A stretch of 64,000 bases of DNA, taken from NCBI RefSeq assembly GCF_036365525.1, contig NC_090390.1:71516153-71580152 (forward strand). The letters run 5' to 3'. Made by a program: the position numbers and the translations under genes. The notes under the pieces were generated by a model that was given only the letters and a program-made list of their open reading frames with translations, did not search any database and was not told the DNA's origin. Shown one piece after another: positions 419-56,867 of this stretch; position 1 is the stretch's first letter, and each line of letters opens with the position of its first letter. The stretch comes from Heterodontus francisci. Taxonomy: Eukaryota.

Positions 419-1607
419 TCACCCTGTAACTAGGTTTAAGACAGACATCCTGCTGCAGGTTCTTTCCATTGATCCACAAATGGCTCTACCAGCTGCTTCA
501 AGGAGGAAAGACACACCATGCTCAACCATTACAGTCCATGCTTCTAGCACGAGAGGCTAACAAATGACTGAGTTATTCAATTCCTACCCTCTGTCTCTGA
601 ACAACACACTACAGTACCAACAGTGGCTCTGGTCAAAGATCTGGTACTTCACCATTGGATATAAACACCACTTGAGGCCGTCACCATTGTCATAGGAAGT
701 TAAGATCAACCAAATGAAAGCATTATCAGACGTTCAAAGTAGTTTGTCACTTTGCCCTGCAACTGTGTCACTTTTGGGTAATTGCTGTTTTCCTCATATA
801 TTCCCCTCATAAATTATGCTTGCTGCTCCAGTCACAGATCTATCATTTGACAGGGCAGCAGTATTACTACATTAGAAATTCAGTCTAAAATTGCATCTCA
901 AACTGAATTTGTTTCAAAGGGAATCATAGTGGTGAACTTTTACCTGAAAAATGCTGTTTCTGTGGAGCAAAGCTTGTATCTTGTCAATGTTGGCAGAGCA
1001 CAGGTTTTTGTACTGACAGAACCAGAGATACCTGTCAGTATTCACATTTGTTTGTGTTACATGATAACAAAACATTATGTAAACCCATTACAAAGCAGCA
1101 TATGGCTAAATGGATAACAGGATCTATCTCCTTGTCCTACTCGTTAACACAATAAGAAGCCAAAACATTAAATACCAATTAGCTAATCTTGTGTCTAATT
1201 CTTCCCAATCTGCAAATGGGACTCAACTCGCAGGGCAGCTATATGAAGTAACCTGCATGGTTTTTAAAGCCTTGTTTTTTATAGAATAGCTTGGGACAAG
1301 ATGCATGTTGCATTAATGTTCCATGTTGGCTTCCAAAGTAAATCATTGGGGTCTCAGAATTGCATTTTCTGTACAAAATTCATTGGTTGTGGAGTTTCAG
1401 TGATTGAAGACAAGTGTTAGATCTCCCAGCTCTTAAATGATGTTCTTCAATCTTAAACATAGTTAATGCTCCATGTGCAATGATTTCTTTCATCCATCCA
1501 TCAGTTCTGTCTGACAAGGAAAGTAACAGTGAGGATAACAGCACACACCGTTATTTATGTGCAAATTAGACAGCAACGCCTAGGAAGTGCATATGCACAA
1601 TTAAATA

Positions 1608-3305
1608 GTGTTCACTATGGAGAAGGACAAGCTAGGTGTAGAGACCAGGGAGGAGCATTGTGATATACTTGAACATAGCATTGAAAGGAAGGAAATATTA
1701 GTTGTTTTAGTGGGCTTAAAAGTGGATAAATCCCCAGGCCCAGATGAAATCTATCCCAGGGTGTTATGTGAGGCAAGGGTGGAGATAGCAGGGGCTTTGA
1801 CACAAATTTTCAAATACTCTCTGGCCACAGGAGAGGTACCACAGGATTGGAGGACAGCAAATGTGGTACCATTATTCAAGAAGGGTAGCAGGGATAAACC
1901 AGCTAATAACAGGCTTGTCAGTCTAATATCAGTGGTAGGGAAACTATTGGAAAGTATTCTGAGGGACAGGATTAATCTCCATTTGGAGAGGCAGGGCTTA
2001 ATCAGGGATAGTCAGCATGGCTTTGTCAGGGGGAGATTGTGCTTAACTAACTTGATTGAATTTTTCGAGGAGGTGACTAGATGTGTCGATGAGTGTAAAG
2101 CAGTAGATGTAGTATACATGGATTTCAGTAAGGCTTTTGATAAGGTCCCGCATGGGAGATTGGTTAAGAATGTAAGAGCCCATGGGATCCAGGGCAATTT
2201 GGCAAATTGGATCCAAAATTGGCTTAGTGGCAGGAGGCAGAGGGTGATGGTTGAGGGTTGTTTCTGCGAGTTGAAGCCTGTGCCCAGTGGTGTACCGCAG
2301 GGATCGGTGCTGGGACCCTTGCTGTTTGTAGTGTTCATTAATGATTTAGAAATGAGGACAGCAAATGTGGGGTATGATCAGTAAGTTCGCAGATGACATG
2401 AAAATTGGTGGTGTCATAAATAGAGAGGAGGAAAGCCTTAGATTGCAGGATGATATTGATGGGCTGGTAAGATGGGCAGAGCAGTGGCAAATGGAATTTA
2501 ATCCTGAGAAGTGTGAGGTGATGCATTTTGGGAGGACTTTCAAGGCAAGGGAATATACAATGGATGGTAGGACCCTAGGAAGTACAGAGGGTCCGAGGGA
2601 CCTTGGTTTCTTGTCCATAGATCATTGAAGGCAACAGCACAGGTAGTTAAGGTGGTTAGGAAGGATATTTGCCTTTATTAGCCGAGGCACAGAATATAAG
2701 AGCAGGGAGGTTCTGACGGAGCTGTATAAAATGCTTGTTAAACCACAGCTGGAGTACTGTGTACAGTTCTGGGCACCACACTATAGAAAGGATGTGATTG
2801 CACTGGAGAGGGTGCAGAGGAGATTCACCAGGATGTTGCCTGGGCTGGAGCATTTCAGCTATGAAGCGAGACTGAAAAGGCTAGGGTTGTTTTCCTTGGA
2901 GCAGAGAAGGCTGAGGGCAGACCTGATTGAGGTATACAAAATTATGAGGGGCGTTGATAGGTTAGATAGGAAGAAACTTTTTCTCTTAGCAGAGGGGTCA
3001 ATAACCAGGGGGAATAGATTTAAGGTAAGGGGCAGGAGGTTTAGAGGGGATTTGTGGAAAAATGTTTTCACCCAGAGGGTGGTTGGAATCTGGAACGCAC
3101 TGCCTGAAGGGGTGGTAGAAGCAGGAACCCTCACAACATTTAATAAGTATTTAGATGAGCACTTGAAATGCTATAGCATACAAGGCTACGGGCCAAGTGC
3201 TAGAAAATGGGATTCGAATAGTTAGGTGCTTGATGGCTGGGACAGACAGAATAGGCTGAAGGCCCTGTTTCTGTGTTGTATAACTCTATAACTCTATGAC
3301 TCTAA
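1608..3305 (+). mobile_element. CR1 LINE, 5'-truncated (ORF2 RT and C-terminus, frameshifted)
   Basis: ORFs 1608-2384, 2365-2628 and 2731-3225 carry KSPGPD, DFSKAFDKVPH, GVPQGSVLGP, KFADD and LEYCVQFWAP; 3' tail (ATAACTCT)n at ~3279-3303. Confidence 0.95.
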
Positions 3306-8311: not shown

Positions 8312-9260
8312 CTTCTTCTTACAGAGTTCTTTTGGGCCTCCTTATCTCGAGAGACAATGGATACGCGCCTGGAGGTGGTCAGTGGTTTGTGAAGCAGCGC
8401 CTGGAGTGGCTATAAAGGCCAATTCTGGAGTGACAGGCTCTTCCACAGGTGCTGCAGAGAAATTTGTTTGTTGGGGCTGTTGCACACTTGGCTCTCCCCT
8501 TGCGCCTCTGTCTTTTTTCCTGCCAACTACTAAGTCTCTTCGACTCGCCACAATTTAGCCCTGTCTTTATGGCTGCCCGCCAGCTCTGGCGAATGCTGGC
8601 AACTGACTCCCACGACTTGTGATCAATGTCACACGATTTCATGTCGCGTTTGCAGACGTCTTTATAACGGAGACATGGACGGCCGGTGGGTCTGATACCA
8701 GTGGCGAGCTCGCTGTACAATGTGTCTTTGGGGATCCTGCCATCTTCCATGCGGCTCACATGGCCAAGCCATCTCAAGCGCCGCTGACTCAGTAGTGTGT
8801 ATAAGCTGGGGATGTTGGCCGCTTCAAGGACTTCTGCGTTGGAGATATAGTCCTGCCACCTGATGCCAAGTATTCTCCGAAGGCAGCGAAGATGGAATGA
8901 ATTGAGACGTCGCTCTTGGCTGGCATACGTTGTCCAGGCCTCGCTGCCGTAGAGCAAGGTACTGAGGACACAGGCCTGATACACTCGGACTTTTGTGTTC
9001 CGTGTCAGTGCGCCATTTTCCCACACTCTCTTGGCCAGTCTGAACATAGCAGTGGAAGCCTTACCCATGCGCTTGTTGATTTCTGCATCTAGAGACAGGT
9101 TACTGGTGATAGTTGAGCCTAGGTAGGTGAACTCTTGAACCACTTCCAGAGCGTGGTCGCCAATATTGATGGATGGAGCATTTCTGACATCCTGCCCCAT
9201 GATGTTCGTTTTCTTGAGGCTGATGGTTAGGCCAAATTCATTGCAGGCAGACGCAAACCT
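8312..9260 (-). mobile_element. RTE-clade (BovB-like) LINE, 5'-truncated, subfamily A
   Basis: FGLTISLKKT, FTYLGS, LLYGSEAW, RLRWLGHV and C-terminal CxxC..H zinc finger; (GAA)n tail; near-identical to 28829-29762. Confidence 0.95.
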
Positions 9261-13699: not shown

Positions 13700-14556
13700 T
13701 GAGGCCCTTACAAGATTCTCAAAAGAGCTCACGCTAACTGTCAGCTGACGAGGTCCATCAGGGCTTACAAGGGCGGAATGAGCAGTATTCCTAGGGGAGC
13801 CCATGAATTATATTCAACCACAATCTGTAACTTAATGGCCTGGCATATCCCCCATTCTACCATTACCATCAAGGCAGGGGACCAACCCTAGTTCAATGAG
13901 GAGTGTAGGAGAACATGCCAGGAGCAACACCAGGCATACCTAAAAATGAAGTGCCAACTTGGTGAAGCTACAACACAGGACTACGTGCATGCTAAACAGT
14001 GGATAAGACAGCGATAAGCGATCCCACAACCAACGATCAGATCAAACCTCTGCAGTCCTGTCATATCCAGTCCTGAATGGTTGTGGATTATTAAACAACT
14101 AATCAGAGGAAGAGGCTTCACAAACATCCCCATCCTCAATGCTGGCAGAGCATCATTGATGCTAGTCTTTACACCATTCGATTCACTCCATGTGACATCA
14201 ATTACCAACTGAAAGCACTGGATACAGCAAAAGGCTATGGGCCCTGACAACATCCCAGCTGTAGCACTGAAGACTGCAGAACTAGCCGTACCCTTAGCAA
14301 AGCTGTTCCACTAGAGCTACAATACAGGCATCTACCTGACAATGTGGAAAATTGCCCATGTATGTCCTATCCACAAAAAGCAGGACAAATCCAACCCAGC
14401 CAATTACCAGCCCATCAGTCTACTCTCAGTCATCAACAAAGTGATGGAAGGGGTAGTCGACAGTGCTCTCAAGCAGCATTTACTCAGCAATAACCTGCTC
14501 ACCGATGCTCAGTTTGGGTTCCACCAGGGTCACTTGGCTCCAGACCTCATTACACC
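13700..14556 (+). mobile_element. Decayed internal fragment of the LINE family at 49763-53034
   Basis: MWKIAHVCPIHKKQDKSNPANYQPISLLS...FGFHQGHLAPDLIT matches 51505-51966. Confidence 0.9.
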
Positions 14557-16049
14557 GTTGACCTGCTGCAAATTCTGGATCCTCAGAGGGAGATCCACTC
14601 CCTCTGGCTCCTGAAATGTCTGGACCATAATCCATCACCATTGTGTATTTAGTTTCTGGTGTTTTGGTGCACTGTAGCACTTCTGGGAGAGTGGGGGTTG
14701 TGTACGGGTGGGGTGAAATCCTTCAGTGTATTAGAGCTAACATAACTAAGTATGCATTAATGTGTGTATTTGATTTAATAGAGAATTTGCTAATTATTTC
14801 CTATGCTTCTAAATTCATCCTGTGGATAATCCAGTTTATTGCACATTAAGAGCATCACTTTTGGTTTGATGCTTATGGGCTCATTAAGGACCAATTAATG
14901 ATAAATATGAAAATCTGCTGTTAGCTTGACAGTTAATGTTAATGATGCCTGCAACAAGGGTGTGACTAGGAAATAGAGAGAGCAAGTAGAGGTACCTTGT
15001 GGATCAGAACAGGAGATGGTGTAAAGAGCATCACAGCTGCTGCCATCCATACAGCAGGCAATTGTGTCAGCTAGCGTCAGTTTGATGGGAAATCATATAG
15101 ATATGGGTACTTTAGCATAAACAGAGGCTGGTGCTGACTTCATATTAGAGCTATCTACTCTAATCCCATTTCCCTACTTTTTTCCACATAACTTTTAATA
15201 ATTTTCTTCTCCGAGTATTTATCAATTCCCTCTTAAATGTCACTGTTGACTTGGTTTTAATTGGCATGTGAGGAGCAGTAGAGAAGGGTCAGTGAGATCT
15301 AATGCGAAAAAGGAGAACCTGCTACATCATGTCAAGGGATCAAACTCACCAAGGAGAGATTAGCCTTGCCAAGAAAGAAATAGATGAATTGTGCCATTTC
15401 CTGAAACCAGACCTGTAGCTGAGGAGGAACATCAGCACTCTGTTGCAAGTAATTGTAAAAGTGACATAGTGTTCAGAAACAAAAGAACACTACTCAGAAA
15501 ATGCTGTCAAAAGAGTTCAGCACATCTAGGTGCAATTCCACCGAACGTTCTTATCCCAAAAGAAAGAAAGACTTGCATTTATATAGCTCCTTTCATGACC
15601 TCGGGACATCCCAAAGCACTTTACGACCACTGTTTGAAGTGCTGTCATTGTTGTAATAAGAGAATCTTATGTTTCCAGGCTAACAATTGATTAATACTTG
15701 TGCATATATGGGTTACCTGCTTGAAATGTGGCTCATGATGCCTCTAAACAGTGCTTGCAGCCCTCAACAAACAGACTGCAAACAGGCACTTTGGAGAGGC
15801 AAGAAACCCATTGAGCAGTATCTTGGGTATTGTAACAATGGTTCTGATGTTTGGATTGTACTGTTGCTGCTCCAGTTGTGAGACTTGATAGAATGATAGC
15901 AGTGGGCTGCACACTGATAAACATCAATATTCAAAAGAGCTTATGGTCATTTGTGGATGAGTATCAGCACTAAGACACAGCACAAAAAGAAGAGATAGAA
16001 AATGATGGAGCTGCTAAGTAGCTAGTAGAGACAAATTAGTAGACACTGT

Positions 16050-18360
16050 GGTGAATATAATTAACAGGATTAATTAATGACCTCGTAGTGAAGGCACCCC
16101 GAGGTAGCAGTGATCATAATGTGGTCAAATTTCACATTCAGTTTGAGGGGAAGAAGGGTGAATTTAAGACCAATGTTTTAAACTTAAATAAGGGCAATTA
16201 TGAGGGCATGAAGGCAGAGATGGCTAAAGTAAACTGACAAATTAGGTTAAGGGATAGGTCAGTAGAGATGCAGTGGAATACATATAGGGAGATCTTTCAG
16301 AATACTCAGAAAAGATACATTCCAGTGAGAAAGACTCTAAGGGAAGGACACTCCATCCATGGCTAACTAAGTTCAAGATAGTATCAAATTGGAAGAAAAA
16401 GCATTTAATTTCACAAAGATGAGTGGCAGGTCAGAAGATTGAGCAGAATATAAAGAACAACAAAGAATGACTAAAAGGTTAATAAGGAGGGAGAAAATAG
16501 AGAACGAAAGAAAGCTAGCTAGAAATATAAAGACAGATAGCAAGAGTTTCTACACTTATTTAGAAAGAAAAAGAATAAGTAAAGTAAGTGTTGGCCCTCT
16601 AGAGAGTGAGTCTGGGAATTAATAATGAAAAATAAGGAGATGATGGATGAACTGAACAGATATTTTGCACCTGTCTTCACTCTAGAGGATATAAATAACT
16701 TCCCAGAAATAATCGTGAATCAGGGGGTGAAAGGGAGGGAGGAACTTGAAACAATTACTATCACCAGGGAAAGGGTACTGAAAAAATTATTGGAACTAAA
16801 AGCTGACAAATCCCCAGGTCCTGATGGGCTTCATCCAAGGGTCTTAAAAGAAGTGGCCGCTGAGATAGTAGATGCATTGGTTTTAATTTTCCAAAATGCC
16901 CTAGATTCTGGAAAGGTCCCATCAGATTGGAAAATAGTGAATGTGACTCCTCTGTTCAAGAAAGGAAGGAGACAGAAAGCAGGAAACTACAAGCCAGTTA
17001 GCTTAACATCAGTCATAGGGAAAATGTTGGAATCTATTATCAAGGTGGTTATAACAGGGTACTTAGAAAATCTCAGTGTAATCAGGCAGAGTCAACATGG
17101 TTTTATAAAAGGGAAATCATGTTTGATTAATTTATTGGAGTTCTTTGAGGAAGTAACAAACGTGGATAAAGGGGAACCTGTGGATGCGCTATACTTAGAT
17201 TTCCAGAAGGTGCCACATCAAAACTTACTAAGCAAAATAAGAGTTCATGGTATTGGGAGTAACATATTAGCATGAATAGAGGTTTGGTTAGTTAACACGA
17301 AACAGAGTGTAGGGGTAAATGGATCATTTTAGGTTGGCAAGCGGTAATTAGTGGAGTGCCACAGGGATCAGTGCTGGGGCTTCAACTATTTGCAATTTAT
17401 ATCAATGACTTAGATGAAGGGACTAGATGTATGCTTGCTAAATTTGATGATGACACAAATATAGGTAGGAAAGTAAGTTGTGACAAGGACTTGAGGAGGC
17501 TACAAAGGGATATAGATAGTTTAAGTGAGCGGGCAAAAATTTGGCATATGGAGTTTAATGTGGGAAAATGTGAACTTATCCACTTTGACAGGAAGAATAG
17601 TAAAACAGCTTATTAGATGAATGGAGAGAGACTGCAGAACTCTGAGGTACAGAGGGATCTGAGTGTCCTGGTACATGAATCACAAAAAGTTGGTATGCAG
17701 ATACAGCAAGTGATTAGGAAGTCAAATGGAATGTTGTCATTTAATGCAAGAGGAGTGGAATATAAAAGTAGGGATGTTTTGCTGCAGCTGTATAGGGTAT
17801 TGGTGATATCATATCTGGAGTACTGTGTACAGTTCTGGTCTCCTTATTTAAGAGAGGATATAAATGCATTAGAGGCAGTCCAGAGAAGGTTCAGTCAACT
17901 GATACCTGGGATGGGGAGGATATCTTATGAAGAAAGGTTGGACAGGTTGGGTCTGTATCCATTGGAGTTTAGAAGAACGTGATCTTATTGAAACATATAA
18001 GATCCTGACAGACTTGACAGGATTAATCTCCCTTTGCGGGAGAGACTAGAACTAGGAGACAGAGATTAAATAAAAGGGGTTGCCCATTTAAGATGGAGAT
18101 GAGGAGAAATTTTTTCTCTTAGAGGATGATGAGTCTGTGGAGCTTTCTTCCCCAGAGAGTGGTGGAGGCAGGGTCATTGACTATTTTTAAAGCAGAGGTA
18201 GGCAAATTCTTGACTAACAATGGAGTTAAAGGGTATCAGTGGTAGGTGGGAAAGTGGAGTTGAGGCCACAATCAGATCAGCCATGATCTTATTAAATGGA
18301 GGAGCAGGCACAAAAGGGGCCGAATGGCCTACTCCTGCTCCTAATTCATATGTTCATATG
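16050..18360 (+). mobile_element. CR1 LINE, 5'-truncated ORF2 pseudogene
   Basis: ORFs 16625-17275, 17356-17616 and 17617-17982 carry CR1 RT motifs; 3' end ggccgaatggcctactcctgctcct plus (ATATGTTC) tail. Confidence 0.95.
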
Positions 18361-22754: not shown

Positions 22755-25700
22755 AGAAGAATGTAAGAACATAAGAAATAGGAGCAGGAGTAGGCCATTC
22801 GACCCCTCAAGCCTTCCCCGCCATTCAATAAGATCATGGCTGATCTACCCCAGACCTCAATTCCTCTTTCATGCCAGCTCCTCATAACCCTCAACTCCCC
22901 GATGTTTCAAAAATCTATCTATCTCCTCTTTAAACACTTTCAGTGATCTAGCCTCCACAACTCTCTGGGGTAGAGAATTCCAGACATTCACTACCCTCTG
23001 AGAGAAGAAATTCCTTTGCATCTCAGTTTTAAATGAGTGTCCCCTTATTCTGTAACTATGTCCCCTAGTTCGAGATTCCCCCACTAATGGAAACATCTTC
23101 TTAACATCTACCCTGTCAAACCCCCTCAGAATCTTGTACGTTTCAATAAGATCCCCTGTCATTCTTCGAAATTATAATGAATAAAGGCCTAACCTGTTTA
23201 GCTGTTCTTGATAAGTCAACTCTTTCATCCCAGGAATCAGCCTAGTGAATCTCTTTTGAACTGCCTCCAATGCCTGTATATCCTTTCTTAAATACAGGGA
23301 ACAAAACTGTACACAGTACTCCAGGTGCGGCCTCACCAACACTCTGTACAGTTGTAACAAGACATCCCTATTTTTAAACTCCAACCCCCTAGCAATAAAG
23401 GCCAAAATTCCATTTGCCTTCTTAATTACTTGCTGCACCTGCATGCTAACTTTTTGTGTTTCATGCACAAGAACACCCAGATCCCTCTGTGCTGCACTTT
23501 TTTGGAGTCTCTCTCTATTTAAATAATAGTCTGCCTTTTGATTCTTCCTACCAAAGTGCATGACCTCACACTTTCCTACATTAAACTCCATCTACCAAGT
23601 TTTTGCCCACTCACTCAACCCATCTATATCCCCTTGCAGATTCCTTATGTCCTCATCACAACATGCCCTCCCACCTATTTTTGAATCATCAGCAAATTTG
23701 GATATATTACACTCTGCCCCTTCCTCCAAGTCATTAATATAGATAGTAAATAATTGAGGCCCTAGCACTGATCCTTGTGGCCTTCTGGAAGTCCAAATAA
23801 ACTACATCTACCAGTTCCCCTTTCTCAACTCTGCTTGTTATATCCTCAAATAACTCTAGCAAATTTGTCAAACATGATTTCCCTTTCACAAAACCATGTT
23901 GACTCTGTTTGATTGTGTTAAGCTTTTCTAAATGACCTTCTATTACTTCCTCATAATGGACTCCAGCATGTTCCCAACGACCGATGTTAGGCTGACTGGC
24001 CTATAGTTTTCTGCTTTTTGTCTCTGTCCCTTCTTGAATAGGGGCGTCACATTAGCGGTTTTCCAATCTGCTGGAACCCTCCCGGAATCCAGTGAGTTCT
24101 GGAATATTTCGACCAATGTCTCCACTATCTCTGCAGCCACTTCCTTTAAAACCTTGGATGTAGGCCATCAGGTCCTGGCGACTTTTCTGCCTTTAGTCCC
24201 ATTAGTTTTTCAAATACTTTGTCCCTCATGATAGAGACTGTTACAAGATCTTTCCTCCCATCAGCTCCTTGCTTATCTGATACCTGTGGGATGTTTATAG
24301 TGTCCTCCACCATGAAGACCGATGTAAAATATTGCTTTAAATTATCTGCCATTTCCCTCTTCCCTGTTGTCAATTCTCCAGTTGCATTCTCCAAGGGTCC
24401 CACGCTCACTTTAACTACTCTCTTTTTATATACCCATAGAAGCTCTTGCTATTTGTTTTTATATTTCTTGCCAATTTGCTTTCATAATCAATTTTCTCCC
24501 TCTTTATTAGCTTTTTAGTCATCCGCTGCTGGTTCCTAAAAAATTCCCAATCCTCTGGCCTACCACTAGTTTTTGCCACTTTGTATGCCTTAGTTTTTGA
24601 TTGGATATACTCTCCTTGACCGCCTTTGTTAACCATGGGTGGTTCATCCTTCTCATCGAGTCCTTCTTTTGACCGAGCTGAATTTTTGCTGATCGTTATG
24701 AAATATCTGCTTAAATGTCTGCCACTGCTCATCCACTGACTTCCCCTTAGTCTATTTTCCCAGCCTGCTTTAGATGGCTCTTTCTTCATACCTCTGTAAT
24801 TGCCCTTGTTTAAGTTGAGGACACTGGTTTTAGACCCGGGTTGCTCGCCCTCCAACTGAATTTGAAATTCTACCATGTTGTGATCGCTACCTCCTTAACT
24901 ACAATATCTCTTATTAATCCTACCTCATTACACATTACTAGATCTAAAATAGCCTGTTCCCGGGTAGGTTCTGCAATGTATTGCTGTAAGTAACAATTCC
25001 TGATGCACTCTACAAATTTGTCTTCCATGTTACCTCTGCCAATCTGATTTGTCCAGTCAATATGCAGATTAAAATCACCCATGACAATTGCAGCACCCTT
25101 CTTACACGCCTCCATTACTTCCCTATTTATACTTTGTCCTACAGTGAGGCAACACTTCGGGGGCCTATAGATGACTCCCACCCGTGACTTCTTCCCCTTG
25201 CTATTCCTTATTTCCACCAAATTGATTCCACATCACGATCTATTGCACCTATATCACTACTCACCACCGCACTGATACCTTCCTTTATTAACAAAGCTAC
25301 CCCACCTCCTTTTCCTTTTTGCCTATTTTTCCAGAACATCGAATACCCTTGAATATTGAGTTCCCAGTCTTGGTCACCCTGCAACCAAGTCTCTGTAATA
25401 GCTAGCAAATCATATTCATTTATTTCTATTTGTGTCGTCAACTCATCTATCTTGTTATAAATGCTGTGTGCCTTCAGATAAAGAGCCTTAAGCTTTGTCT
25501 TTTTACCATTATTACTCATTCTGCTTATTTTTTCTGCCCCTTCCAGTCACACTTTGATTAACATTCGCCTTTTCACTATCCTCCCCCCCACTAATTAATT
25601 TAACGTCCTATCTACAACCCTAGTTATACGATTCACCAGGACACTGGTCCCAGTATGGTTCAAATGAAGCCCGTCCCAACGGAACAGCTCTCTCCTTCCC

Positions 25701-27760: not shown

Positions 27761-28375
27761 TGTCACTCACACATCATATTCTTATTGAAATATTTACTAG
27801 TTTCTAGTAACAGTTTAAACTGCACCAAGCTCTCCAGGACATCTCCAAGATCGCTGTCAGCAAGCAGCCACTGTTATACCATCCACTTTTCTTAAAACAG
27901 AGGGTTAGTGCTAAAGTTATGGCTACCATCTTCAGCCACTCTATAAGGTAGAGGAGCATTAGACTACAAAGAAATCATTTAAAACAGGGTCAACTACAAT
28001 TAACATGGTGAATATGTTGAGTTTAACTGAAGTATGAGATGGAATATAACATATCAGTTATCCAGCAAAAACATACAGCTGTGACAAGTCGCGGGTACCA
28101 ATCCAGGTAAGACAGGACGGCTGGCATGCATGAACATCCCTTCTCTTCTTCTTTTTCTTGTTCTCTTCTTGGTGCCTCACACCTTCACGACTCCTTGAAT
28201 TACCAAAGTGTGTTAGACTGGGGTCAGCATAGATTCAATCTCGAGAGTTCTCCTCCGATGCCTAACTTCACTAAGACCTTCCAAAGTCTTTTACTTTATG
28301 CCCTTATTCAGGGGTGAACCTAAGTGTTGACAGCGCCTTATTATCCTATAAAGGTTCCCCTTAATACAAAATGCC

Positions 28376-29762
28376 GTGAACAGCAGATGCCCCTCTACAT
28401 TGCTTTCATTGATCTCACCAAAGCCTTTGACCTCGTCAGCAGACGTGGTCTCTTCAGACTACTAGAAAAGATCGGATGTCCACCAAAGCTACTAAGTATC
28501 ATCACCTCATTCCATGACAATATGAAAGGCACAATTCAACATGGTGGCTCCTCATCAGAGCCCTTTCCTATCCTGAGTGGTGTGAAACAGGGCTGTGTTC
28601 TCGCACCCACACTTTTTGGGATTTTCTTCTCCCTGCTGCTTTCACATGCGTTCAAATCCTCTGAAGAAGGAATTTTCCTCCACACAAGATCAGGGGGCAG
28701 GTTGTTCAACCTTGCCCGTCTAAGAGCGAAGTCCAAAGTACGGAAAGTCCTCATCAGAGAACTCCTCTTTGCTGACGATGCTGCTTTAACATCTCACACT
28801 GAAGAATGCCTGCAGAGTCTCATCGACAGGTTTGCGTCTGCCTGCAATGAATTTGGCCTAACCATCAGCCTCAAGAAAACGAACATCATGGGGCAGGATG
28901 TCAGAAATGCTCCATCCATCAATATTGGCGACCACGCTCTGGAAGTGGTTCAAGAGTTCACCTACCTAGGCTCAACTATCACCAGTAACCTGTCTCTAGA
29001 TGCAGAAATCAACAAGCGCATGGGTAAGGCTTCCACTGCTATGTTCAGACTGGCCAAGAGAGTGTGGGAAAATGGCGCACTGACACGGAACACAAAAGTC
29101 CGAGTGTATCAGGCCTGTGTCCTCAGTACCTTGCTCTACGGCAGCGAGGCCTGGACAACGTATGCCAGCCAAGAGCGACGTCTCAATTCATTCCATCTTC
29201 GCTGCCTTCGGAGAATACTTGGCATCAGGTGGCAGGACTATATCTCCAACACAGAAGTCCTTGAAGCGGCCAACATCCCCAGCTTATACACACTACTGAG
29301 TCAGCGGCGCTTGAGATGGCTTGGCCATGTGAGCCGCATGGAAGATGGCAGGATCCCCAAAGACACATTGTACAGCAAGCTCGCCACTGGTATCAGACCC
29401 ATCGGCCGTCCATGTCTCCGTTATAAAGACGTCTGCAAACGCGACATGAAATCGTGTGACATTGATCACAAGTCGTGGGAGTCAGTTGCCAGCATTCGCC
29501 AGAGCTGGCGGGCAGCCATAAAGACAGGGCTAAATTGTGGCGAGTCGAAGAGACTTAGTAGTTGGCAGGAAAAAAGACAGAGGCGCAAGGGGAGAGCCAA
29601 CTGTCCAACAGCCCCAACAAACAAATTTCTCTGCAGCACCTGTGGAAGAGCCTGTTACTCCAGAATTGGCCTTTATAGCCACTCCAGGCGCTGCTTCACA
29701 AACCACTGACCACCTCCAGGCGCGTATCCATTGTCTCTCGAGATAAGGAGGCCCAAAAGAAG
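28376..29762 (+). mobile_element. RTE-clade LINE, 5'-truncated with uninterrupted RT and C-terminus, subfamily A
   Basis: ORF 28324-29709 carries FIDLTKAFD, GVKQGCVLAP, LLFADD and a zinc finger; TSD AATACAAAATGCC at 28363-28375 and 29763-29775. Confidence 0.97.
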
Positions 29763-30419
29763 AATACAAAATGCCCAAGAGTATGTTGAGTTTTTTGTCT
29801 AAACCATGAGCTAAAAGCCTGCCCTTAAGTTATCTTCCACCTTCCATGGCCTGCTTTAGCCTTTGCTTGCTCAGGACTACTTTCCTCATTTCTTTCTGTT
29901 TTTCATGGCCAGTTCCATAACTCCTTCAGCACATCCCATCTCTGGCCTTCAAACCAACATTAAGGGGTTCCATTGTTCATATTTGCCTGTTATCAGTTAT
30001 TTATGCCCCAAACTGTTTGTTAGGCTTGTTAATGATCTGTTCATAATGGTAGAGCAGCGTTAGATTAATTTAATATTTTATGGGCATGATTTGTAAACAG
30101 TACAACAACTGACCCATTACTGGATTAACAGGTGTAAATAATTAAAACAAAGTCAATATTCAGAGTATGATTTGAAAGCAGATACAATGGTCCTTTATGA
30201 CAAGTGCTGAACGATTAAGTTTTTCATTAACAGATGGAGTACAGCTGGTTCATTTGTTTGTAAAGGTGCAGAACTTCCTGCTGTTGCCATATAATAGATC
30301 TTGTCCTCAGGAGCTTAGTGGGAGAGTTTATATTCTCTTATCATTTAATGGAAATCTCTTGTTAGAGATAAGGCAATATTATTACATTATTACTACTCCC
30401 CTTTGAAAATTGCCATTAT

Positions 30420-31762: not shown

Positions 31763-32175
31763 GGGATAGGGTAACATAGTGGTTATGTTACTGTACTAGT
31801 AATCCAGAGGCCTGGACTAATGATCCAGGGATATGAGTTCAAATCCCACTATTGCAGCTGGAGAATTTAAATTCAGTTAATTTAAATAAATTATGAATAA
31901 AAAGCTACTATCAGTAATGGTGACCATGAAACTGCTGGATTATTGTAAAAACCCCTCTGGTTCACTAACACTTTATACAGAAGGAAATCTGCCATCTTTA
32001 CTTGGCCTGGCCTATACGTGAGTCCAGATACACAGCAATGTGGTTGACTCTTAACTTCCCTCTGAAATGGCCTAGTATTATATTCAAGAAGGCAGCTCAC
32101 CAAGACCAATTACAGATGCGCAATAAATGCTGGCCTTGCCCGTGATGCCTACTGCCATGAATGAATTAAACAAAA
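31763..32175 (+). mobile_element. tRNA-headed SINE made of the 5' head and 3' tail of the LINE at 49763-53034
   Basis: 31763-32075 matches 49763-50070; 32083-32170 matches 52930-53025; B box GAGTTCAAATCC. Confidence 0.9.
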
Positions 32176-47477: not shown

Positions 47478-49140
47478 CCACATATGAACACACGAATTAG
47501 GAGCGGGGGTAGGCCACTAGGCCCCTCAAGCCTGGACCACCATTCAATATGTTCAGGCTGAAATGATTACTCCACATTTCCCACCCCCGATAACCTTTCA
47601 CTCCTTTGCTTATCAAAAATCTATCTACCTCTGCCTTACAAATATTCAAAGACTCTGCTTCCACCGCCTTTTGAGGACAAGAATTACAAAGACTCATGAC
47701 TTTCTGAGAGAAAAACTTTCTCCTCATCTCTGCCTTAAATGGGTGACCCCTTATTTGTAAACAGTGACCCCTAGTTCCAGATTCTCCAAAAAGGAAATGT
47801 CCTTTCCACATCTACCCTGTCAAGACCCCTCAGGATCTTATATGTTTCAATCAAGTCGCTTCTCACTCTTCGAAACTCCAGTGGATACAAGCCTAGCACG
47901 TCCAGCCTTTCCTCAGAAGACAATCCACCCATTCCAGGTATTAGTTGAGTAAACTTCTCTGAACTGCTTCCAATGCATTTACATCCTTTCTTAAATAAAG
48001 AGACCAATACTGTGCACAGTACTCCAGATGCAGTCTCACCAATGCCATGTATAGCTGAAGCATAACTTCCATACTTTTTTATTCAATTCCCCATGCAATA
48101 CATTATAACATTTTATTAGCTTTCCTAATTACTTGCTGTATCTGCATACTAACCTTTTGCAATTCATGCACTAGGACACACTGATCCCTCTGCATCTCAG
48201 AGCTCTGTAATCTCTCACCATTTAGATAATATACTTTTTTATTCTTCATGCCAAAATGGACAATTTCACACTTTCCCACATCATACTCCATTTGCCAGGT
48301 CTTTGCCCACTCACTTAACCTATCTATATCCCTTTGTAGCCCCCTTATGTCCTCTTTGCAAGTTACTTTCCTACCTATCTTTGTGTCATCAGCAAATTTA
48401 GCAACCATACCTTCGGTCCTTCATCTAAGTCATTTATATAAATTGTAAAAAGTTGAGGTCCCAGCACAGATCTCTGTGACACATCACTCGTTACATCTTG
48501 CCAATCAGAAAATGACCCATTTATGCCTACTCTCTGTTTCCTGTTAGCTAGCCAATCTTCTATCCATGCCAATATGTTACCCCCTACACCATGAGATTTT
48601 ATTTTCCACAATAACCTTTAATGTGGCACCTTATCAAATGCCTTCTGGAAATCTAAGTACAATACATCCACCGGTTCCCCTTTATCCACTGCATATGTAT
48701 CTCGCTCAAAGAACTCCAATAAGTTGGTTAAACATGATTTCCCTTTCACAAAACTATGTTGACTCTGCCTGATTACCTTGAATTTTTCTAAATGCCCTGC
48801 TAACAACATCTTTAATAATAGCTTCTAACATTTTCCCTAAGTCAGATGTTCAGCTAACTGGCCTGTAGTTTCCTGCTTTCTATCTCCCTCCCTTTTTGAA
48901 ATAAGGAGTTACATTTTCTATTTTCCAATCTAACGGAACCTTCCCTGAACCTAGAGAATTTTGGAAAATTAAAACTAACACATCAACTATCTCATTGGCC
49001 ACTTCTTTTAAAACCCTAGGATGAAGTCCATCTGGAACCGTGTCTTGTCAGCCCGTGGTTCCAACAATTTGTTCAGTACCACTTCCCTGGTGATTGTAAT
49101 TTCCTTGAGTTCCTCCCTCCCTTCCATTTCCTGACTTACA
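47478..49140 (-). mobile_element. CR1 LINE, 5'-truncated
   Basis: ORF fragments with LDFQKAFDKVPH, KFADD and FFSQKVM; CR1 3' end. Confidence 0.95.
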
Positions 49141-49762: not shown

Positions 49763-52700
49763 GGGGTAGGCAGTGGCATAGGGGCATTATCGCTGGACTA
49801 GTAACCCAGAGACCCAGCGTATTTCTCTGGGGACATGGGTTCGAATCCCACCACAGCAGAAGGTGGAATTTGAATTTAATTAATAAATCTGGAATTAAAA
49901 GCTAGTCTAATGATGGCCATGAAACCATTGTCAATTGTTGTAAAAATCCATCTGGTTCACTAATGTCCTTTAGGGAAGGAAATCTGCTGTCCTTACCTGG
50001 TCTGGCCTACATGTGACGCCAGACCCACAGCAATGTGGTTAACTCTTACATGCCCTCTGAAATGGCCTAGCAAGCCACTCAGTTGTACCTAACCGCTACA
50101 AAGTTAATAAAAAGGAATGAAACCGGACAGACCACCCGGCATCAACCTAGGCACCGGAAACGACAACGGCAAACCCAGCCCTGTCGACCCTGCAAAGTCC
50201 TCCTTACTAACATCTGGAGGCTTGTACCAAAGTTGGGAGAGCTGTCCCACAGACTAGTCAAGCAACAGCCTGACATAGCCATACTCACGGAATCATACCT
50301 TACAGACAATGTCCCAGACTCTGCAATCACTATCCCTGGGTATGTCCTGTCCCACCGGCAGGACAGACCCAGCAGAGGTGGTGGCACAGTGGTATACAGT
50401 AGGGAGGGAGTTGCCCTGGAAGTCCTCAACATCGACTCCGGACCCCATGAAGTCTCATGGCATCAGGTCAAACATGGGCAAGGTAACCTCCTACTGATTA
50501 CCACCGACCTCAGCTGATGACTTAATACTCCACCATGTTGAACACCACGTGGAGGAAGCACTGAGGGTGGCAAGGGCACAAAATGTACTCTGGGTGGGGG
50601 ACTTCAATGTCCATCACCATGAGTAGCTCGGTAGCACCACTACTGACCGAGCTGGCCGAGTCCTAAAGGACATAGCTGCTAGACTGGGTCTATGGCAGGT
50701 GGTGGGGTAACCAACACGAGGGAAAAACATACTTGACCTCATCCTCACCAATCTGCCTGCTGCAGATGCCTCTGTCCATGACTGTATTGGTAGGAGTGAC
50801 CACCGCATAGTCCTTGTGGAGACGAAGTCCCGCCTTCACATTGAGGATACCGTCCATCGTGTTGTGTGGCACTATCACCGTGCTAAATGGGATAGATTTT
50901 GAACAGATCTAGCAATGCAAAACTGGGCATCCATGAGGTGCTGTGAGTCATCAGCAGCAGCAGAATTGTACTCAACCACAATCTGTAACCTCATGGCCTG
51001 GCATATCCCTCTACCATTACCATCAAGCCAGGAGACCAACCCTGGTTCAATGAAGAGTGCAGGAGGGCATGCCAGGAGCAGCACCAGGCATACCTCAAAA
51101 TGAGGTGTCAACCTGGTGAAGCTACAACACAGGACTATCTGCGTGCCAAACTGCGTAGGCAGCATGCGATAGACAGAGCGAAGCGATCCCATAACCAACG
51201 GATCAGATCTAAGCTCTGCAGTCCTGCCACATCCAGCCGTGAATGGTGGTGGACAATTAAACAACTGACTGGAGGAGGTGGGTCCACAAATATCCCCATC
51301 CTCAATGATGGGGGAGCCCAGCACATCAGTGCTAAAGATAAGGCTGAAGCATTTGCAACAATCTTCAGCCAGAAGTGCCGAGTTGATGATCCATCTCGGC
51401 CTCCTCCTGAAGTCCCCAGCATGACAGATGCCAGACTTCAGCCAATTTGATTCACTCCGCGTGATATCAAGTAACGACTGAAGGCACTGGATACTGCAAA
51501 AGCTATGGGCCCTGACAGCATTCCGGCAATAGTACTGAAGACCTGTGCTCCAGAACTTGCCGCGCCCCTAGCCAAGCTGTTCCACAACAGCTACAACACT
51601 GGCATCTACCCTGCAATGTGGAAAATTGCCCAGGTATGTCCCGTACACAAAAAGCAGGACAAATCCAACCCGGCCAATTACCGCCCCATCAGCCTACTCT
51701 CTATCATCAGTAAAGTAATGGAAGGTGTCATCAACAGTGCCACCAAGCGGCACTTGCTTCGCAATAACCTGCTCAGTGACGCTCAGTTTGGGTTCCGCCA
51801 GGGCCACTCAGCTCCTGACCTCATTACAGCCTTGGTTCAAACATGGACAAAAGGTGAGGTGAGAGTGACTGCCCTTGACATCAAGGCAGCATTTGACCAA
51901 GTATGGCATCAAGGAGCCCTAGCAAAACTGAGGTCAATGGGAATCAGGGGGAAAACCCTCCGCTGACTGGAGTCATACCTAGCGCAAAGGAAGATGATTG
52001 TGGTTGTTGGAGGTCAATCATCTGAGCTCCAGGACATCAGTGCAGGAGTTCCTCAGGGTAGCGTCCTAGGCCCAACCATCTTCAGCTGCTTCATCAATGA
52101 CCTTCCTTCAATCATAAGGTCAGAAGTTGGGATGTTCGCAGATGATTGCACAATGTTCAACACCATTCGTGACTCCTCAGATACTGAAGCAGTCTGTGTA
52201 GAAATGTAGCAAGACCTGGACAATATCCCGGCTTGGGCTGATAAGCGGCGAGTAACATTCACGCCACACAAGTGCCAGGCAATGATCATCTCCAACAAGA
52301 GAGAATCTAACCATCTCCCCTTGACATTCAACAGCATTACCATCGCTGAATCCCCCACTATCAACATCCTAGGGGTTACCATTGATCAGAAACTGAACTG
52401 GAGAAGCCATATAAATACCGTGGCTACAAGAGCAGGTCAGAGGCTAGGAATCCTGAGGTGAGTAACTCACCTCCTGACTCCCCAAAGCCTGTCCACCGCC
52501 TACAAGGCACAAGTCAGGAGTGTGATGGAATACTCTTCACTTGCCTGGTTGGGTGCAGCTCCAACAACACTCAAGATGCTCGACACCATCCAGGACAAAG
52601 CAGCCCGCTTGATTGGCACCCCATCTACAAACATTCACTCCCTCCACCACCGATGCACAGTGGCAGCAGTGTGCACCATCTACAAGATGCACTGCAGCAA

Positions 52701-53034
52701 TGCACCAAGGCTCCTTAGACAGCACCTTCCAAACCCGTGACCTCTACCAACGAGAAGGACAAGGGCAGCAAATGCATGGGAACACCACCACCTTCAAGTT
52801 CCCCTCCCAGTCACACACCATCCTGACTTGGAACTATATCGCCGTTCCTTCACTGTCGCTGGGTCAAAATCCTGAAACTCCCTTCCTGACAGCACTGTGG
52901 GTGTACCTATCCCACATGGACTGCAGCAGTTCAAGAAGGCAGCTCACCACCACCTTCTCAAGAGCAATTAGGGATGGGCAATAAATGCTGGCCTGGCCAG
53001 TGACACCCACATCTCATGAATGAATTTTTTAAAA
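49763..53034 (+). mobile_element. tRNA-headed, ORF1-less LINE (APE endonuclease and RT; CR1/Jockey group, clade uncertain); full length but mutated
   Basis: A box TGGCATAGGGG at 49774 and B box GGTTCGAATCC at 49838; EN motifs ILTESYL, GGGT, WVGDFN and SDH; RT motifs YRPISLLS, DIKAAFD, GVPQGSVLGP and FADD; possible TSD AACTTATATA/AACTTAGAAA. Confidence 0.9.
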
Positions 53035-53875
53035 AACTTAGAAAGTTATGTAGCTCTTGCCGGGTGGCAGAACAGTGAAGATTGGCTCCTCTGACTGCAA
53101 TAGTAATCTGTCATAACTCCCTATCAAACAATTAGAAATTGGAAAACCTCAAATCATTTTCCATGTAAATTAATTCAATTCAGTTTTAATTCCTTGTGCA
53201 TGAGCATTTATTTTGCCAGGTTTTTTCATTTTGTCAGGTTTATAGCCTTAATTACAAGCATTTCCCATCGGCATTTATAAACCTGTTCTTTCAAAGGACC
53301 GTAAATTAAAAATCAATAACACTGCAAAGTTCAAATGCTTTGTTCATCAACCCAACCGTGAGTTTACAGCCTTGAAATAACTCCCATGTAACCAATCTTT
53401 TTTTCTCATATTCACGAGAATAGTTTTGCTCTGTTTGGCTCATGCTTTTGTTGGTGGAAATTGTTCACAAGCTATACTGCAAACGTCAGTGAAAGACAGG
53501 AAGAAAGAATTTGCATTTATATAGTGCTTTTCACCACCTCAGGACATCCCAAAGTGCTTTACAGTTAATGAAGTACTTTTGAAGTGCAGTCACTGTTGTA
53601 AGGTAGGAAAGCGTAACCGAATAATTGTAACATGATCAGTGCAAGCTCACCATCAATCAAAGTTGATAATTAAGAAATTATTCTACCTTTGTATTGATGG
53701 TGAAACACCAATGGCTGGAGCAGATGGTATAAAGACCTTTCTGATTGATCTGTGCCAGCAGTTAACAGATCACTGTTTACACTCCTTCATAATTGTCATT
53801 GCTGTGGTGGTTCAATAAAGATGCTGATGTTGGCAGCCTGTATACCCTCAGCTACAGCCTCCCATTGATCCCATG

Positions 53876-55256
53876 AGGCACAGTGCAGCTTTCGAGCAGA
53901 GAGATCCACCATTGACATGCTGTTCTCCCTTGGCCAGCTACAAGAGGAATGCCATGAACAACAGATGCCCATCTACGTTGCTTTCATTGATCTCACCAAA
54001 GCCTTTGACCTCATCAGCAGATGTGGTCTCTTCAGACTACTAACAAAGATCGGATGTCCACCAAAGCTACTAGGTATCCAGGGCTGTGTTCTCACACCCG
54101 CACTGTTTGGGATCTTCTTCTCACTGCTGCTCTCCCATGCGTTCAAGTCTTCAGAAGAAAGAATTTTCCTCCACACAAGATCAGATGGCAGGTTGTTCAA
54201 CCTTGCCCGTCTTGGAGCAAAGACCAAAGTACGGAATGTCCTCATCAGGGAACTCCTCTCTGCTGATGATGCTGCATTAACATCCCACACAGAAGAGTAT
54301 CTGCAGAGACTCATCGACAGGATTGCGGCTGACTGCAACAAATTTGGCCCAACCATCAGCCTCAAGAAAACGAACATCATGGGACAGGACATCAGAAATG
54401 CTTCATCCATCAATATTGGCGACCACACTCTGGAAGTGGTTCAAGAGTTCACCTACCTAGGCTCAACTATCACCAGTAACCTGTCTCTCGATGCAGAAAT
54501 CAACAAGCGCATGGGAAAGGCGTCCGCTGTTATGTCCAGTCTGGCCAAGAGGGTGTGGGAAAATGGCGCACTGACATGGAACACAAAAGTCCGAGTGTAT
54601 CAAGCCTGTGTCCTCAGTACCTGGCTCTACGGCAGCGAGGCCTGGACAACGTATGTAAGCCAAGAGCGACGTCTCAACTCATTCCATCTTCGCTGCCTCC
54701 GGAGAATCCTTGGCATCAGGTGGCAGGACCATATCTCCAACGCAGAAGTCCTCGAGGCGGCCAACATCCCCAGCATATACACCCTACTGAGCCAACAGCG
54801 CTTGAGATGGCTTGGCCATGTGAGTCGCATGGAAGATGGCAGGATCCCCAAGGACACATTGTACAGCGAGCTCGTCACTGGTATCAGACCCACCGGCCGT
54901 CCATGTCTCCGCTTTAAAGACGTCTGCAAACGCGACATGAAGTGCTGTGACATTGACCACAATTCGTGGGAGTCAGTTGCCAGTGATCGCCAGAGCTGGC
55001 GGACAGCCATAAAGGCGGAGCTAAAGAGTGGCGAGTCGAAGAGACTTAGCAGTTGGCAGGAAAAAAGACAGAAGCGCAAGGGGAGAGCCAACTGTGTAAC
55101 AGCCCCAACAACCAATTTTATCTGCAGCGCCTGTGGAAGAGTCTGTCACTCTAGAATTGGCCTTTATAGCCACTCCAGGCACTGCTTCACAAACCACTGA
55201 CCACCTCCAGGCGCTTACCCATTGTCTTTCGAGACAGGGAGGTCAAAGAAGAAGGA
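53876..55256 (+). mobile_element. RTE LINE, 5'-truncated with an in-frame internal deletion, subfamily B
   Basis: ORF 53917-55200; lacks the segment between PKLL and QGCV that is present at 28490-28590; 70-bp flanking duplication. Confidence 0.96.
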
Positions 55257-55342
55257 GGTAGTTCAATAAAGATACTGATGTTGGCAGCCTATATTCCCTC
55301 AGCTACAGCCTCCCATTGATCCCATGCAGCAACAACATTGAA

Positions 55343-56553
55343 CAAAGAAGAAAGAACAGTACAGCACAGGAACAGGCCATTCGGCCCTCCAAGCCTGCGC
55401 CGATCTTGATGCCTGCCTAAACTAAAACCATCTGCACTTCCGGGGACCATATCCCTCTATTCCCATCCTATTCATGTATTTGTCAAGATGCCTCTTAAAC
55501 GTCGCTATTGTACCTGCTTCCACCACCTCCCCCGGCAGCAAGTTCCAGGCACTCACCACCCTCTGTGTAAAGAACTTGCCTCGCACATCCCCTCTAAACT
55601 TTGCCCCTCTCACCTTAAACCTATGTCCCCTAGTAACTGACTCTACCACCCTGGGAAAAAGCTTCTGACTATCCACTCTGTCCATGCCGCTCATAACTTT
55701 GTAAACCTCTATCATGTCACCCCTCCACCTCCGTCGTTCCAGTGAAAACAATCCGAGTTCTTCCAACCTCTCCTCATAGCTAATGCCCTCCAGACCAGGC
55801 AACATCCTGGTAAACCTCTTCTGTACCCTCTCCAAAGCCTCCACGTCCTTCTGGTAGTGTGGCGACCAGAATTGCACGCAATATTCTAAGTGTGGCCTAA
55901 CTAAAGTTCTGTACAGCTGCAGCATGACTTGCCAATTTTTATACTCTATGCCCCGACCGATGAAGGCAAGCATGCCGTATGCCTTCTTGACTACCTTATC
56001 CACCTGCGTTGCCACTTTCAGTGACCTGCGGACCTGTACGCCCAGATCTCTCTGCCTGTCAATACTCCTAAGGGTTCTGCCATTTACTGTATACTTCCCA
56101 CCTGCATTAGATCTTCCAAAATGCATTACCTCACATTTGTCCGGATTAAACTCCATCTGCCATTTCTCCGCCCAAGTCTCCAACCGATCTATATCCTGCT
56201 GTATCCTCTGACAATCCTCATCACTATCCGCAACTCCACCAACCTTTGTGTCGTCCGCAAACTTACTAATCAGACCAGCTACATTTTCCTCCAAATCATT
56301 TATATATAATACAAAGAGCAAAGGTCCCAGCACTGTTCCCTGCTGAACACCACTAGTCACATCCCTCCATTCAGAAAAGCACCCTTCCACTGCTAACCTC
56401 TGTCTTCTATGACAGAGCCAGTTCTGTATCCATCTTGCCAGCTCACCTCTGATCCCATGTGACTTCACCTTTTGTACCAGTCTGTCATGAGGGGCCTTGA
56501 AGTCCATATGGATAACATCCACTGCCCTTCCTTCATCAATCATCTTTGTCACT
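55343..56553 (-). mobile_element. CR1 LINE, 5'-truncated and relatively young (stop-free RT C-terminal frame)
   Basis: ORF 55422-56702 with KFADD and LEYCVQFWSP; its N-terminal ~50 aa come from flanking DNA. Confidence 0.95.
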
Positions 56554-56867
56554 TGCCACTTACAGGCAAGTACCTCAAAGCTAATGCAGGTAACCATTCT
56601 AGTTACCAATCTCAGTGCAGATAGAAAAGTCTGTGTTCTGGTGACATGCCCAGAGGAGAAAAATAAAACTTGAGTTAAAAACTGGGTTGTCACAGTTTGC
56701 ACTGCAGCCCAGGGTCTGCTGTGATGTAATACATTGCATTGGTCAACAGGATAGCAGAGTTTCTAAGAAAACCTAAACATAACCCTAAAACCTCCAATAA
56801 AGCACAAATGCCTTCTTTCTTTAATATCATTTGATAAATTTCGTGCTAATCTAAACTAGGGATGTTT

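Follow-up and report, generated by a model that had tools for sequence, protein, structure and literature searches.

The locus and its neighbors

The stretch of DNA analyzed here, 'the window', is 64,000 nt long and comes from the 6.0-Gb genome of the shark Heterodontus francisci. On its plus strand, at 49765–53036, lies a whole, decayed copy of a Zenon LINE with an A-rich tail and with ends that it has in common with 29 other near-full-length copies. The copy opens with a tRNA-like head (49765–49864) in which candidate Pol III promoter boxes stand at tRNA-like spacing: an A-box-like 11-mer at 49774–49784, mutated here and of consensus form in the family majority, and a B box at 49838–49848, GGTTCGAATCC, which is a perfect motif match. 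Next comes a conserved body (49865–50087), common to the LINE and to a SINE relative, and then a single frame (50071–52968) for endonuclease (EN) and reverse transcriptase (RT), with an Arg-rich stretch before the EN. This frame runs to 975 codons from stop to stop in the majority and is broken here; the EN and RT pieces of the window copy match Pfam and join as one frame in the majority. An out-of-frame ATG at 50117–50119 opens 46 codons that overlap the start of the EN. The last 95 nt before the tail (52930–53024), again common to LINE and SINE, include AATAAA at 52980–52985, and are followed by six Ts and six As (53025–53036), apparently secondary T-run growth in an ageing A tail. The copy is dead: it diverges by 3.0% from the family majority, premature stops number 10, and three deletions have removed 8, 4 and 15 nt.

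Runs of four or more Ts occur exactly twice on its sense strand, at 50897–50900 and 53025–53030. The former, the sole internal TTTT, overlaps an in-frame TGA (50897–50902). At this site 20 of 30 aligned copies read TTTCG, five TTTCA, four TTTTG and one something else, and because 20 read TTTCG both the TTTT and the stop are attributable to CpG decay. A preliminary description of the locus, made from the letters alone, had said as much, and the alignment agrees with it. It had also placed an A box at 49774 and a perfect B box at 49838, where both are indeed found, the A box imperfect in this copy, and had noted the lack of an ORF1, which holds for the majority, with its one EN+RT frame. Its 'single EN+RT frame' describes the family, then, rather than the window copy, with its ten stops and three deletions.

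The window also contains the SINE relative (31767–32170, plus strand) and an internal piece from an older member of this LINE lineage (13805–14560, plus strand), about 82–83% identical to the majority. Five CR1 fragments, at 1200–3300 and 16300–18000 and, on the minus strand, at 22800–25600, 47900–49100 and 55400–56700, belong to several families, 65–80% identical to each other; they are rich in sense-strand T4 runs, as had been claimed, with 6–11 each in 1.2–2.8 kb. A very young RTE family is represented at 28369–29764, 53700–55300 and 8327–9260 (loci L113–L136). All 39 of its 39 non-self matches are 100% identical over 932 nt, several loci have a 946-codon frame open to the locus edge, and the family may still be active.

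A head that belongs to the LINE

A query consisting of the head and the start of the EN returned 5804 candidates, of which the best 40 were scored; within these, 39 of 39 non-self matches span the junction between head and EN. The family majority was built from the window copy and the 29 of 39 fetched copies that align as one near-full-length piece, 10 interrupted or deleted copies being left out. It is 3287 nt long, with a mean divergence of 3.0% and one 975-codon frame from nt 307 to nt 3231. No consistent target-site duplications were found in the 30 copies.

Copies picked by their heads are blind to whether the head belongs, and so a separate query was made with EN sequence only. Thirteen of its 29 non-self loci reach nt 9 or less, i.e. 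are complete; two begin at nt 39 and 59, five begin at nt 188–271, and nine end inside the ORF, at nine different places between nt 407 and 746. The 600 nt upstream of 14 truncated copies contain no shared alternative 5' end; two pairs have unrelated repeats in common, away from the junction. The preliminary description had raised the prospect that most full-length copies might lack the head; here, copies that lack it are 5'-truncated. An 18-nt ORF motif of an older subfamily has 384 exact matches in the genome (the reversed motif, as control, has none). Twenty-seven of 30 such loci extend before nt 300 and 16 continue to nt 86 or less, a weaker test of the head because the motif sits close to the body. 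The head, with its A and B boxes, is an integral and old part of the LINE.

The majorities of the older and young subfamilies are 94% identical. Their codons differ by 98 synonymous and 49 non-synonymous changes, for a pN/pS of 0.16 (also given as dN/dS); the ORF evolved under purifying selection. The older majority was iterated from the young one, retains one unrestored CpG stop and may lean to the young sequence, and for this reason, and because of their 94% identity, the subfamilies are not independent. Their first 100 nt are 80% identical, with both A and B boxes still within consensus, and nt 190–320 are 96% identical, when synonymous sites in the ORF differ by 15%. The head thus drifts faster than the ORF, both boxes surviving, and boxes and body look constrained in the master elements.

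In its look the head may resemble a tRNA-Leu. It has no ARAGORN or Rfam tRNA match, and no parent was found among the tRNAs called in the genome sample (Thr, Lys and one doubtful Leu). Many identical tRNA-Thr and tRNA-Lys genes stand in arrays on several contigs of this assembly (G000: C35, C28, C1806 and others; L372–L401), some of them multi-megabase and unplaced. No region of the element folds better than shuffled sequence (z from +0.4 to –1.7), and no B-box motif was found upstream of 64 metagenome LINE frames, on contigs many of which lack the 5' end. Shark SINEs with tRNA heads are known, SacSINE1 and the DeuSINEs (PMC5499810, PMC4824008), and identity of head and body with these was considered. 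It was rejected on a by-eye comparison with the domain alignments for Deu, UCON3 and Meta that are printed with PMC7245038: the Deu sequence is in neither head nor body, and the body does not match UCON3 or Meta either.

Identity as Zenon

To judge by sequence, the window LINE is the elasmobranch Zenon family, of the CR1 group, and is already catalogued as such, which the preliminary description had thought possible. Consensuses CarCar_, RhiTyp_, ScyCan_ and HypSab_Zenon-1, and SquAca_Zenon-1/2/3, are given in PMC13343379 (preprint 10.64898/2026.01.13.699120), and exact 17–18 nt motifs from its head, its body and its junction are present in the consensuses published there. By eye, over the first 400 nt, all seven of these shark and ray sequences, from five species, open with the same head, body and junction; two hagfish Zenons and one from coelacanth have no head, and have T4 runs in that interval. 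The five Zenon-1 consensuses are 3244–3314 nt long (PMC13343379). Elasmobranch Zenons are described as having a poly(A) tail and no ORF1 (10.64898/2026.01.13.699120), and likewise the window family has a poly(A) tail and a single ORF, for an APE endonuclease and an RT, with no ORF1. We see no structural difference; these are the same family. Since it is an ordinary trait of the Zenon clade, the absence of ORF1 adds nothing to the case for Pol III. In the main text of PMC13343379 the words tRNA, Pol III, polymerase III and promoter never occur. The promoter-like head, the avoidance of T-runs and the missing AUG seem to be undescribed, with an earlier account possible in subscription journals, Repbase or Dfam.

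Its relatives among proteins are from single-frame LINEs of ~950 aa in amphioxus, a butterfly and many unnamed contigs. A quick tree of 41 rows, drawn without a named Zenon reference, places the family with the amphioxus, butterfly and unnamed invertebrate-type proteins, with support of 93, and apart from the CR1 and RTE of this genome. One headless relative, L163, has an in-frame ATG before its EN and a long 5' region (1–950) with a duplicated ~35-nt motif; this region is a candidate, and could be a self-cleaving or promoter element. Zenon is abundant in sharks and rays. Pieces of this LINE turn up in shark and ray gene models (P0001, P0011, P0030, P0038 and P0045, among them anoctamin-7-like and cystathionine beta-synthase-like), which are probably annotation artefacts.

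Avoidance of T-runs

The sense strand of the 30-copy majority is 20% T. It has eight runs of three or more Ts and none of four or more; the corresponding numbers for A are 44 and 14, for C 49 and 13, and for G 40 and 8. Individually, 19 of the 30 copies are free of internal T4s; each of the other 11 contains a single one, in four cases through the same CpG decay as in the window copy. The preliminary description had allowed that low T content alone might account for this. By itself, zero T4 is weak evidence, only marginally beyond chance. The ORF would be expected to have 2.1 T4s if codon usage is preserved (P 0.08–0.09), 3.5 if its bases are shuffled (P 0.03), 4.4 if synonymous codons are chosen according to composition (P 0.001) and 1.2 if a dinucleotide model is used (P 0.29).

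The strong signal is avoidance of TTT, instead, and this does go beyond composition. TTT spanning two codons is absent from the majority ORF, against 10.0 +/- 2.8 in synonymous shuffles (none of 2000 was as low), whereas AAA, CCC and GGG are at expectation. The only four TTTs in the ORF are Phe codons, which divide into 4 TTT and 14 TTC. At degenerate third positions where a T would create TTT, T is used in four of 56 cases, compared with 156 of 472 (33%) at neutral ones (Fisher P 2e-5); synonymous T is avoided, then, exactly where TTT would result. Patterns that resemble weak terminators (four Ts in 5 nt) occur once, where 6.5 are expected; neither pyrimidine tracts nor splice-like motifs show a deficit. 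The older subfamily is much the same, with no T4, five TTTs, and T at three of 59 TTT-making sites.

Other LINEs of this genome behave differently. An intact, young RTE with 21% T has four T4s, 12 spanning TTTs where 16 are expected, and T at 25 of 84 TTT-making versus 131 of 428 neutral third positions. For a CR1 the figures are 10 T4s, 25 spanning TTTs against 26, and 47 of 92 versus 124 of 282. Of the headless relatives that retain a 5' region, the closest are L163 (37% identity) and L164 (32%), which have 20 and eight T4s, respectively; L163 places T at 81 of 128 TTT-making versus 229 of 417 neutral positions. Among 64 LINE frames of at least 350 aa, from 80 metagenome loci, the median TTT ratio is 1.0 and T4 is present in 63. 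The exception is L178 (positions 114–2825 of its contig), with 15% T, no T4, one TTT codon and T at one of 60 TTT-making sites; its codon-spanning test, zero against 2.0, is not significant. An upstream frame overlaps its start, and its 5' end is missing from the contig. L178 indicates that TTT can be avoided where no head is seen, so that the pattern does not belong exclusively to tRNA-headed LINEs, and a few other metagenome frames have milder deficits (z down to –3.2). Two further observations count against reading the avoidance as the mark of Pol III: the RTE is also short of weak-terminator patterns (11 against 18.6), and in the Zenon majority CpG-containing triplets are more depleted than TTT. 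The proposal that selection kept the coding region readable by Pol III is partly supported, all told, by a depletion of T-runs that RTE and CR1 do not share; the polymerase itself we can only suggest from the sequence.

The SINE relative and the 3' end

The majority of the SINE consists of element nt 1–323 joined to nt 3193–3287, as does the copy in the window, and its tail takes in the ORF's final codons. In other copies the joint falls near nt 3220, and in contigs of other organisms there are several joints at similar places. Since the body ends where the LINE continues, and since there is more than one 3' break, repeated internal deletion from the headed LINE is the simplest account. The SINE looks like an internal deletion of the window LINE family, although the order may have been the reverse, with a LINE capturing the 5' part of a SINE. 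Lepidopteran Zenon and its derivative Persaeus offer a close parallel (PMC6740152): a single-ORF element of ~3.3 kb that yields short 5'-plus-3' derivatives by internal deletion, as here. Persaeus is described as having no tRNA homology and no Pol III promoter, whereas the deleted derivative here is a tRNA-headed SINE. A tRNA likeness is reported also for RTE-1_DAn and elements related to it (PMC5786205), LINEs of the RTE clade that hold a tRNA-like sequence; its position is not stated there, nor is a promoter test or a T-run analysis.

The distance from AATAAA to the A tail is ~45 nt. Like the window family, tRNA-derived SINEs, T+ SINEs such as B2 among them, have A and B boxes inside the element and an AATAAA close to its end (PMC8466645, PMC10572872). 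SINEs are by definition non-coding and shorter than 700 nt (PMC3531059); the window family is 3287 nt long and has a 975-codon EN–RT frame. T+ SINEs, moreover, have a Pol III terminator after AATAAA, whereas the Zenon majority has AATAAA followed by a single T and no built-in terminator, which counts against the Pol III reading. Of 113 3' ends found, 92 were scored, by an automatic procedure that missed a few more T-runs; one T precedes the A tail in 47 of the 92, and four or more do so in 12. The T6 of the window copy is not a family feature, as the preliminary description had guessed, but neither is it peculiar to this copy. In B2 SINEs, the first residues of the A tail turn to T with age, and T-runs grow passively (PMC8466645), as they seem to do in the window family. 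The 3' T-run was accordingly rejected as a built-in terminator, the longer runs fitting passive ageing of the A tail, and because such runs grow passively the T6 neither supports nor harms the Pol III reading. One copy, L073, has a (TGAA)n repeat in place of poly(A).

Where does translation start?

The majority ORF has its first in-frame ATG only at codon 285, and none before the EN. Nine ATGs lie upstream of the main frame. At nt 353, after an A-rich spacer, there is an ATG in the +1 frame that starts the 46 codons mentioned above; six of the seven published elasmobranch consensuses share this out-of-frame ATG, the seventh having ATA instead, as does the older subfamily. Before the EN there are three Arg codons whose first positions change between lineages, by eye, with Arg kept, and a relative, P0016, has a similar Arg-rich leader. 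These changes and this leader suggest that the main frame is already being read by about nt 385, if not before. Read-through of an amber codon (ATG-GCC-TAG before the frame) was considered as the start, and rejected. The frame of the spacer is kept in both subfamilies, but not beyond: by eye, three of the published consensuses have a spacer of 51 nt, in three more it measures 50, 47 and 43 nt, and in Squalus there is an in-frame stop. Because of this variation and this stop, amber read-through is not conserved. An uncapped 3.3-kb RNA with nine upstream ATGs and no in-frame AUG would pose a real problem of translation, and we count it against the Pol III reading. In R2, also a LINE, the RNA differs from a normal capped Pol II mRNA and a conserved AUG is often missing from the ORF; there, however, a ribozyme cuts the RNA out of a Pol I co-transcript, and the element itself lacks a promoter.

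Which polymerase?

LINEs, by the usual division, are coding, autonomous and transcribed by Pol II; SINEs are non-coding, dependent and transcribed by Pol III (PMC3531059, PMC5786205). Zenon may straddle that divide. We put at about 0.55 the probability that its active ancestors were transcribed by Pol III, with translation from that RNA, or its start, left unspecified. That Pol III made the RNA that retrotransposes seems to us probable, or, at the cautious end of our range, slightly favored. The fullest form of the idea is a protein-coding Pol III LINE lineage, maintained in sharks and rays for hundreds of millions of years, with an uncapped 3.3-kb RNA whose translation, for want of an in-frame AUG, proceeds by way of the conserved 5' body, and with SINEs produced by deletion; this we advance tentatively, and with somewhat more doubt than belief.

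The cycle, as we imagine it, would go as follows. TFIIIC would bind the A and B boxes in the first 85 bases of the element, and Pol III would start about 10 nt upstream of the A box; with the boxes internal and the start upstream of them, each full-length insertion should therefore carry its own promoter. Selection would keep the 3.3-kb coding strand free of T-runs, and Pol III would continue along the A tail until it met a first T-run, whether in the tail or in the flank, as it does with Alu. The RNA would be uncapped. With no in-frame AUG to begin from, translation of the EN–RT protein would probably start on, or close to, the conserved out-of-frame AUG/AUA that comes after the A-rich spacer, by frameshift, re-initiation or a near-cognate start. 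The protein would attach to the 3' 95 nt that LINE and SINE share, and from there carry out target-primed reverse transcription. Ready-made SINEs would result from internal deletions in which the first ~320 nt and the last 65–95 nt survive. The element is present in 23 of 24 runs, as assembled contigs that are mostly only presumed RNA and are silent on start, strand and polymerase; four contig runs cover 29–30 of its 30 bins, and are equally silent on start, strand and cap.

The most serious competitor is the conventional one: Pol II makes the RNA, and the head, captured long ago, is kept for some other job—as a TFIIIC-bound opener of chromatin, a Pol II initiator or an RNA element—with TTT avoided through codon bias or through selection against U-rich RNA signals. 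This has in its favor the very definition of LINEs as Pol II transcripts, the AATAAA close to the tail, the greater ease of translating a capped RNA, and L178, which avoids TTT with no head seen. We consider it unlikely, nonetheless, although by no means far-fetched. Both boxes have been kept through 20% divergence of the head, and the same head stands on SINE copies that have no other candidate promoter; the depletion, for its part, is specific to T-runs, is absent from an RTE of similar T content, and does not extend to pyrimidine tracts or splice-like motifs.

Labor might also be split, Pol III making the full-length template and the protein coming from another RNA made at that locus, whether a capped Pol II transcript or a read-through one. 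Boxes and T-run avoidance would then be explained with no need to translate uncapped RNA, and many copies of the family do lie in introns in the whale shark (10.1101/443036). This arrangement leaves the missing in-frame AUG unexplained, however, and for the ORF to stay under purifying selection, template and protein must have had one and the same locus as their source over long times; we think this arrangement distinctly improbable. Least credible is pure chance, a SINE having inserted beside a truncated LINE and low T content accounting for the rest. The 20% T and the marginal absence of T4 leave room for the second half of this explanation, but the first founders on a junction that is the same in every non-self match among the 40 best candidates, and that recurs in EN-picked copies, the older subfamily and published consensuses from five species, by which we regard it as refuted.

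Implications

If Pol II does the work after all, what remains is a tRNA-like 5' end, deeply conserved and unreported, in a family that is already known. If Pol III does it, the rule that LINEs belong to Pol II and that Pol III elements are non-coding would be broken. A LINE whose Pol III promoter works would be a natural case of a Pol III gene that codes for protein, and would show by what means ribosomes are reached by an uncapped RNA of 3.3 kb. It would also provide a route from LINE to SINE in a single step.
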